DNA of 64,000 nucleotides, from the IMG/VR virus record IMGVR_UViG_2872147552_000001. The stretch is one strand, 5' to 3'. Position numbers and translations under genes: made by a program. A model generated the notes under the pieces. The model searched no databases. It was not told the DNA's origin and saw only the letters and a list, made by a program, of their open reading frames with translations. This document shows positions 19,193 through 25,774 of the stretch, in pieces; within the stretch, counting starts at the first letter, position 1; the number at the start of each line of letters is the position of its first letter. Source of the DNA: a virus (lineage: Duplodnaviria > Heunggongvirae > Uroviricota > Caudoviricetes).

Positions 19193-19215
19193 AACTAAGT
19201 AAGTATTTACCTATC
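19193..19215 (-). promoter_or_regulatory. class B palindrome
   Basis: ctaagtaagtatttacctatc. Confidence 0.4.
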
Positions 19216-24163: not shown

Positions 24164-24183
24164 ATAGGTAAACACTTACTTAC
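24164..24183 (-). promoter_or_regulatory. class B palindrome
   Basis: ataggtaaacacttacttac. Confidence 0.35.
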
Positions 24184-24773
24184 TGCTTGTTGTAAACAAA
24201 ACCAATATCTTTCTTGTGAGGCATATCTGCTGCGGAAAAAGCTGCGATCTTCGCGAGTCGATCACATATTTCATTTTCACGATGCCCGGCGTGACCTTTA
24301 ACCCACTTCCAGCGAACATTATGTCGACTTGCAGCCTCATCCAGACGCTTCCACAGATCAACATTCTTTACCGGTTTTTTGTCAGAAGTCACCCATCCAT
24401 TGCGTTTCCACCATTTCATCCACTGTGTCATGCCGTTTTTCAGATACTGGCTATCAGAGTACAAAATAACGTTGCATGGATATTTCAAACGCTCCAGCCC
24501 GATAAGTGCGCCCATCATCTCCATGCGGTTATTGGTGGTGCTATGAAAACCATCTGAGAACTCGCGTTCCTCACCACGATACTGGAGAACGATACCGTAA
24601 CCACCCGGGCCACCCGGATTTTTAAGGCAAGAGCCATCACTAAAGATTTTCACGGTTTTGAGCTGGGGATTGAACTCTACGACAGGCGTTGTGGGATTGG
24701 TGCGGGGAGAATTTTTGTTTTTGGCTTTTTTGCGAGTTTTTGCTTGCGATCGGGCTGGTGTCTTCGTCGTCAT
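24180..24773 (-). CDS. rnhA: ribonuclease HI
   Basis: IFSDGSC...[27 protein letters not shown] motifs; basic N-terminal extension; AGGAG RBS. Confidence 0.8.
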
Positions 24774-24849
24774 ATAAACTCCTGAATCAAGCGCCGCGCC
24801 GATTTTTTCCTCGCGCGTGCGCACACGCGTGCGTGTTAATAATTATTAA

Positions 24850-25350
24850 AATAAACAAATTACTTCCCAGAACAGGTTTTTATAAACCTGAACTGAACGA
24901 ACGAAGTGAGTGAAGTTCACCTCGAACGAAGTGAGAGGTTGTCTTTTCAGGTAATACTCTCCCAGGGAGGTGAGTATAAAAATCCCTCACCAACCTGGTC
25001 GTTTCATAACCTGAAAAGTTATGGCCTAAGTCTACTGCCAGCTTAGACTTGGGAAGTTATGGATGACAGCACCCCAGAACCGAGATCTTCCCACACTTTA
25101 TGAAGGGGAGTACTGGATTCAACCTCTCGAAACACCCCAGACTCGACAATCATAAAGTGACCCTTGTCTCCGCTCACTTTGGTTCCCCCTTCCCCGACAC
25201 CTAAACGGCACCGGTTCTACGCTGGTAGTGAGCTTTTTTTAAACCTGACGCCAGTGACGCTTACCCCCACCCATCAGGTCGAGTCTCCAGTCTACGACTG
25301 GAAACTAGCAGATCTTAGCACTTACAATTCACTTTATGAATAGTTTGTAC
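24850..25350. other. about 500-bp noncoding region with dense dyad symmetry (candidate structured RNA or origin)
   Basis: No ORF on either strand; multiple stems such as aagtctactgccagcttagactt and repeated gaacgaagtgag. Confidence 0.35.
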
Positions 25351-25357
25351 TTATCTA

Positions 25358-25588
25358 TCATTTCGATTGATTATTTTCTCGACCATGTAGTTGAACATTC
25401 AAGGCAAACACCTCATTGATCAACTCACCTAAAAGCTGTTCAACAAGTTCGCGATGCTCGCCAAGATGCAAGCACTTAATTGCCCATTCGTACAAGTTGA
25501 AAGCCTGCTCGCGATCTTTCATCATTTCACGGGCCTGGGCCAGAAAATCGCTCTCTACGAGCGCAACGACATTAGTCGGGTATGACAT
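25358..25588 (-). CDS. hypothetical protein
   Basis: ATG start (MSYPTNV...). Confidence 0.4.
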   Translation of the reverse strand: MSYPTNVVALVESDFLAQAREMMKDREQAFNLYEWAIKCLHLGEHRELVEQLLGELINEVFALNVQLHGRENNQSK

Positions 25589-25693
25589 GTTGGTTTCCTT
25601 AAAGTGGTTCATAAAATCGATTTTAAAGCGTCTGGGAAGGGGTTCTAGTGGATTCTGTAGTGGTGTTCAGGTCTGGGAGTCTCTGATATAAAA

Positions 25694-25753
25694 CAGCCTG
25701 CTTCCGTATATTAATAATTAATATGTAGTTATTTATATATACAGAAGCAGGCT
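25694..25753 (-). terminator. long-stem hairpin terminator
   Basis: cagcctgcttc ... gaagcaggct with AT-rich loop downstream of the methyltransferase gene. Confidence 0.5.
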
Positions 25754-25774
25754 AATTACAGACGCCAGAACAAA

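Follow-up and report, generated by a model that had tools for sequence, protein, structure and literature searches.

What is encoded by the roughly 500 bp that separate rnhA from the next gene upstream in this phage-type genome? In the window, by which we mean the whole 64,000-nucleotide stretch of DNA analysed, the minus strand carries in order a gene for a Dam-like methylase, a 76/84-aa gene (25358-25612), a noncoding stretch and rnhA. An earlier note, made from the letters alone, had described dense short stems and repeated words in the noncoding stretch and had proposed a structured regulatory RNA, a secondary origin or a recombination site. We put the probability at about 0.6 that this DNA encodes a large structured noncoding RNA of a new family, transcribed from its own promoter on the minus strand and probably pseudoknotted.

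Host phage-plasmid and conservation of the element

The window belongs to an SSU5/pHCM2-type phage-plasmid, and the 581 bases around the finding matched Escherichia phage CMS-2020a at 99% and Cyrano, SSU5 and Klebsiella phage-plasmids at 88-98%. The element was present in 686 PLSDB plasmids, nearly all non-mobilizable and ~110 kb in size, in 12 phages, and in 232 of 5426 complete E. coli genomes (~4%), and carriers besides E. coli included many Klebsiella, Enterobacter and Salmonella isolates. IncFIB was the sole replicon type called on one example plasmid. The RNA family is specific to SSU5/pHCM2-type phage-plasmids of Enterobacteriaceae; a Buttiauxella remnant retained the 3' two-thirds of the element, with the rest gone. 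None of the listed records had an annotated feature beneath the element, and a literature search that included sequence words found no paper on it.

Compared in 100-nt segments across four lineages, the RNA core was 0.92-0.98 identical versus 0.63-0.84 for flanking coding DNA. Among loci retrieved through the RNase H protein, the element kept 87-99% nucleotide identity even where that protein was only 76-84% identical. More divergent members, located through the 76-aa protein, stood at 82% (L205) and ~68% (L202, L206 and the L263-L266 group), and nhmmer and covariance model searches of distant RNase H loci gave no match to the element. A Logan contig of the same locus (L207) was discarded as an assembly artefact; every C in it reads T, and it therefore derives from bisulfite-converted reads.

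The earlier note had seen no open reading frame of meaningful size, and comparison bore this out: none is conserved among relatives, ORFs differ from clade to clade, and variable columns lack 3-nt periodicity (81/73/85 by position mod 3). A 44-aa ORF annotated in phage Cyrano (25043-25177, minus strand) was rejected, as 1- and 2-nt indels break its frame in relatives. The note's further impression that the sequence is not a tmRNA, RNase P RNA, 6S RNA or group I intron agrees with Rfam 15 and ARAGORN. The Rfam scan identified no common element in the region, either at gathering thresholds or at E <= 10; this search, which also covered group II introns, ROOL, GOLLD, OLE, HEARO, raiA and RNAI, returned only chance miRNA-type matches far below threshold, and ARAGORN found no tRNA or tmRNA there.

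Evidence for a minus-strand RNA fold

The dense stems noticed earlier correspond to a region that folds better than its dinucleotide shuffles on both strands, at -185.7 kcal/mol (z = -5.06) on the minus strand and -151.8 kcal/mol (z = -3.65) on the plus strand, with 0 of 100 shuffles reaching the observed energy on either. RNAalifold applied to 50 sequences gave 128 pairs. When 126 of these were tested on the same 50 sequences, the two outermost being left out, 99.7% of cells were canonical and double changes occurred at 12 pairs, compared with 1-3 when the partners were slid.

Conservation and covariation in relatives, the check that the earlier note had named, were then assessed on an alignment (A4) of 17 representatives with <97.5% identity, reaching down to ~68%. 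A curated structure of 99 pairs was 98.3% canonical in these representatives and had double changes at 30 pairs versus 2-7 in slid controls (0 of 500 shuffles had as many), these changes coming mostly from three divergent clades and thus reflecting few independent events. Since the family is narrow, many central pairs never vary in its main clade. Compensatory changes were present in each of P2, P3, P8, P12, P13, P14, P15, P16 and P17. The same pairs were 98.3% canonical when read as minus-strand RNA and 89.6% canonical on the complement, a difference that arises because 9.2% of cells are G-U. The helices, and the strands of one long-range pairing, are as follows.

25283..25305, minus strand: P1, 5' hairpin at the putative transcript start; 4 of 7 pairs covary
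25243..25279, minus strand: P2, long hairpin containing GGGUGGGGG; 4 double-change pairs
25172..25233, minus strand: P3, around hairpin P4 and the G-tract GGGGAAGGGGGAACC; 3 double changes
25093..25159, minus strand: P8, around P9 and the C-tract CUCCCCUUC; 4 double changes in P8
25120..25128, minus strand: 5' strand of the tentative pairing PK1, GAGAGGUUG within the P9 loop; 8 bp, paired at 100%, with a single compensatory change (L205)
25050..25092, minus strand: P12 (UGGGAAG/CUUCCCA) with inner hairpin P13; 3 and 1 double changes
25024..25048, minus strand: P14 hairpin; double changes in 5 of 10 pairs, only 2 invariant
24960..25023, minus strand: P15 (CAUAAC/GUUAUG) and P16 hairpins; compensatory changes
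24933..24941, minus strand: 3' strand of the tentative pairing PK1, CAACCUCUC
24898..24935, minus strand: two copies of CUCACUUCGUUCG, flanking and inside P17 (UGAACU/AGUUCA); 3 double changes in P17

Some helices have been kept through larger changes. MAFFT misaligns P1, P4 and P9, yet the same hairpin folds in every clade, so that these three persist with different sequences and GNRA or UUCG loops. The P4 loop is GUUUA, GAAA or UUCG depending on the clade, and the CUGG/CCAG pairing of P9 becomes CCAG/CUGG in L202. P3 is one base pair shorter in L205, where both arms carry matching deletions. Covariation, the G-U asymmetry between the strands, the tetraloop swaps and a conserved promoter-like site give strong support to the proposal of a structured RNA. 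Searched with a covariance model built on the P8-P14 domain, the window yielded a single copy; remote relatives were not found.

Long-range contacts are more tentative. Besides PK1, the candidate pairings are PK2, between the P15 loop and CUGAAA; T1, between GGGGA of the G-tract and UCCCC of the C-tract; and T2, between GGAACC and GGUUCU. All four are fully or almost fully paired, with one or two events behind each. RNAalifold helices 6/7 (GAGA..GGU with ACCUCUC) are lost in L202, and PK1 was put in their place. A pairing of the 3' word CUGGGAAGUAA with CUUCCCA was also rejected; the 3' word is not conserved, whereas P12 covaries.

The individual words singled out before fared differently. CGAACGAAGTGAG does occur twice (24898-24910 and 24923-24935); neither it nor the G-tract has a further copy or a complementary target within the window. 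The symmetry aagtcta...tagactt (CCTAAGTCTA/TAGACTTGGG, 25025-25034 and 25044-25053) is a real helix, P14. The words gtcgagtct and agactcgac (AGACTCGAC/GTCGAGTCT, 25139-25147 and 25278-25286) are likewise present, but their 9-nt pairing lacks covariation support because the bases belong to P2 and to an extension of P9.

Putative promoter and ends of the RNA

Upstream of P1 the alignment contains a promoter-like site, from which the RNA start was placed. The site and the extent of the RNA are as follows.

24860..25305, minus strand: structured RNA, ~445 nt; putative start ~25305, conservation stops at ~24860
25312..25320, minus strand: extended -10-like element, TGc TAAGAT (TAAAAT or TAACAT in relatives); T, A, A and T invariant in 17 of 17 representatives
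25335..25340, minus strand: -35-like hexamer TTCATA; T18 and T19 conserved
25339..25357, minus strand: 19-bp imperfect palindrome (TAGATAAGTACAAACTATT) that abuts or overlaps the -35; one of ~14 copies in the window

The arrangement suggests that the RNA may be transcribed from its own extended -10 promoter of the sigma-70 type. The spacer between the two hexamers is 17 nt in all lineages and its sequence is unrelated between clades; as the hexamers are kept across this variable spacer, the RNA start was put near 25305. Measured against consensus the putative promoter is weak (8 of 12), which is why a simple promoter scan missed it. Conservation ends on the 3' side at YUCUGGG(AAGUAA), ~24860, and the functional element thus extends from ~24860 to 25305, plus the promoter-like region up to 25340. 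No canonical intrinsic terminator was seen at the 3' end of the RNA, so read-through into rnhA is possible. We infer transcription and both ends of the RNA, together with any action in trans and any function that it has.

Neighboring genes and the downstream slot

The flanking features are as follows, with linkage counted in loci retrieved by an RNA word alone.

25358..25588, minus strand: 76-aa gene (84 aa from an upstream ATG), upstream of the RNA in 56 of 56 loci
24831..24859, minus strand: AT-rich spacer that varies in both sequence and length
24790..24830, minus strand: conserved tract of alternating purines and pyrimidines, followed by GAGG, an A-run and GC-rich sequence; retained without rnhA
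24180..24773, minus strand: rnhA (RNase HI), 197 aa from ATG 24773

The 76-aa protein is predicted to form a three-helix structure (pLDDT 80), and fold and family searches with it gave no match. Downstream of the RNA, rnhA was found in 54 of 58 loci; in the remaining four (L174, L192, L193 and L136) a TIR-like 775-aa gene or other cargo takes its place, or it is truncated, with a common breakpoint just past the A-run. This position is a cargo hotspot. An rnhA homologue also occurs without the RNA (L065 and L066). Because rnhA can be replaced while the RNA stays, and can exist without it, the RNA module is not just a leader of rnhA. Downstream of the RNA in L202 there is a gene with a weak likeness to Tad2.

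RefSeq/PGAP places the rnhA start at GTG 24824 (215 aa), and the added segment (24774-24824) overlaps the conserved noncoding tract. We favor ATG 24773 as the probable true start on the basis of conservation and indels, the A-run being variable in length (5-9 after GAGG). The alternating tract of ~25 nt (ACACGCACGCGTGTGCGCACGCGCG) is Z-DNA-prone, as substitutions in relatives preserve the alternation.

In a related lineage, represented by L208 and L210, a different noncoding sequence of 715 nt (1726-2440) fills the slot that lies between a 74-aa gene and RNase H. It opens with 510 nt of strongly structured sequence (z = -5.68), after which come ~110 nt of AT-rich DNA and two RNase H genes; nhmmer, covariance model and Rfam searches found no match between it and the present family.

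The DNA between the Dam-like and 84-aa genes contains a long and perfect AT-rich hairpin (AGCCTGCTTC...GAAGCAGGCT, 25689-25757), which is probably a terminator on the minus strand, since GUUUUAU comes next on that strand. Rfam returns spurious miRNA matches for it.

Possible roles and alternative explanations

The reading that we prefer begins with minus-strand transcription, which would start at the extended -10 sigma-70-type promoter beside one copy of the dispersed 19-bp palindrome and would yield a transcript that opens with a protective 5' hairpin. The RNA would fold into ~14 helices in two domains, which may be tied by the tentative pairings of the P9 loop with CAACCUCUC, of the G-tract with the C-tract and of GGAACC with GGUUCU, and a protein or nucleic acid might bind the folded RNA or be its target. 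The RNA lies in an early region that includes Dam, Tad2-like and swappable cargo genes. Conceivably, though this is less likely than not, the family represents a new class of RNA, compact and pseudoknotted, that has an activity of its own; it could for example be a ribozyme, form the RNA core of a ribonucleoprotein or serve as a decoy against host defence.

Two other roles were weighed. As a long structured 5' leader, the RNA could control rnhA or other cargo in cis through alternative folding near its 3' end, for example of P17 versus the next hairpin. The gene is on the same strand and in the same orientation with no clear terminator between, it is the next gene in nearly all loci (54/58), the 3' arm of P17 shares bases with the 5' arm of the hairpin that follows, and the conserved tract ahead of the Shine-Dalgarno sequence travels with the RNA. 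We nevertheless consider a leader unlikely: a 445-nt multi-domain fold far exceeds known leaders, the downstream gene is not constant (TIR-like and others), the AT-rich spacer between RNA and gene is unconserved, and an rnhA homologue does without the RNA. At the locus, neither a terminator nor a helix sequestering the Shine-Dalgarno sequence was seen. The other role would be that of a primer or activator RNA for a (lytic) origin, which would form an RNA-DNA hybrid in the AT-rich and purine-pyrimidine region and undergo processing by RNase H from the neighboring gene, as in ColE1 RNA II or the T4 R-loop origins. The distance from the putative start to the A-run is ~505 nt, G-tracts are followed by an AT-rich stretch and the conserved ACGCGCGAGGAAAAAA tract, the RNase H gene adjoins, and in the related lineage of L208 and L210 a different structured RNA (z = -5.68) shares the slot with a long AT-rich stretch and two genes for RNase H; the region may also resemble the ColE1 ori sequence. 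An origin of this kind is still distinctly improbable when set against a GC skew that is flat with no inflection at the site, the typing of the one example plasmid as IncFIB only, and the retention of the RNA where RNase H has been lost. Nor was there an Rfam RNAI match or a conserved antisense promoter, the only plus-strand promoter-like site being in the unconserved edge of the element, and covariation of the G-tract with the internal C-tract suggests that the former pairs within the RNA.

A site acting as DNA, such as the recombination site proposed before, a packaging site or a protein-binding array, or a hairpin-rich spacer with no function, can hardly be credited. Recombination breakpoints nearby and the dispersed palindrome at the edge of the element are what it would explain; G-U strand asymmetry, tetraloop swaps, compensatory changes and a peak of conservation would be unexpected, and a recombination site in particular leaves the strand-specific compensatory changes unaccounted for. 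We do not think that the RNA is either a DNA site or a simple antisense RNA.

Three known systems offer the closest comparisons. ROOL and GOLLD are large ornate noncoding RNAs that are often found in prophages. The present RNA is like them in its length of hundreds of nucleotides, its many helices, its phage-type carriers and its own putative transcription unit, but it is shorter (~445 nt versus roughly 580 and 800), has no Rfam match at E <= 10, is confined to Enterobacteriaceae and lies ~38 kb from tRNA genes rather than next to them. ColE1 RNA II is also a structured RNA of ~500 nt whose fold matters, with an A-run downstream and a link to RNase H; unlike it, the present RNA has no RNA I antisense partner, no Rfam RNAI match and no demonstrated similarity in sequence to RNA II, persists without rnhA, and is carried by a replicon that types as IncFIB (one example). 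The P1/P7 C4, P4 CI and N15 CA immunity RNAs share with it a position at the head of a phage-plasmid early operon and short repeated words inside, but those RNAs are 70-90 nt long and base-pair with repeats, whereas the present fold is far larger and, unlike these leader-derived RNAs, has no complementary target found in the window.

To our knowledge, large bacterial or phage RNAs with a complex fold and no known function are few, and each has led toward new biochemistry. The element described here is the best-conserved 400 nt of its neighborhood and is unannotated in the records examined, and its carriers are a clinically widespread phage-plasmid lineage. Since the hosts are genetically tractable and carriage is wide, function is directly testable.

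A dispersed palindrome and other features of the window

The 19-bp palindrome at the edge of the element recurs through the phage-plasmid. Its sequence, TAGGTAAGTRCTTACCTAT, had 24 strand matches in the window versus 0.45 expected, in intergenic spacers, at positions 19195, 24164, 25339, 26380, 31215, 35925, 40609, 44409, 46361, 51147, 57727, 59057 and 60386. In many cases the palindrome begins at the stop codon of the gene upstream, and in one it lies 11 nt ahead of a start codon; a phage regulator could use it as an operator, or it could act as an RNA hairpin. Three tRNA genes are present at 63353-63596 on the minus strand.
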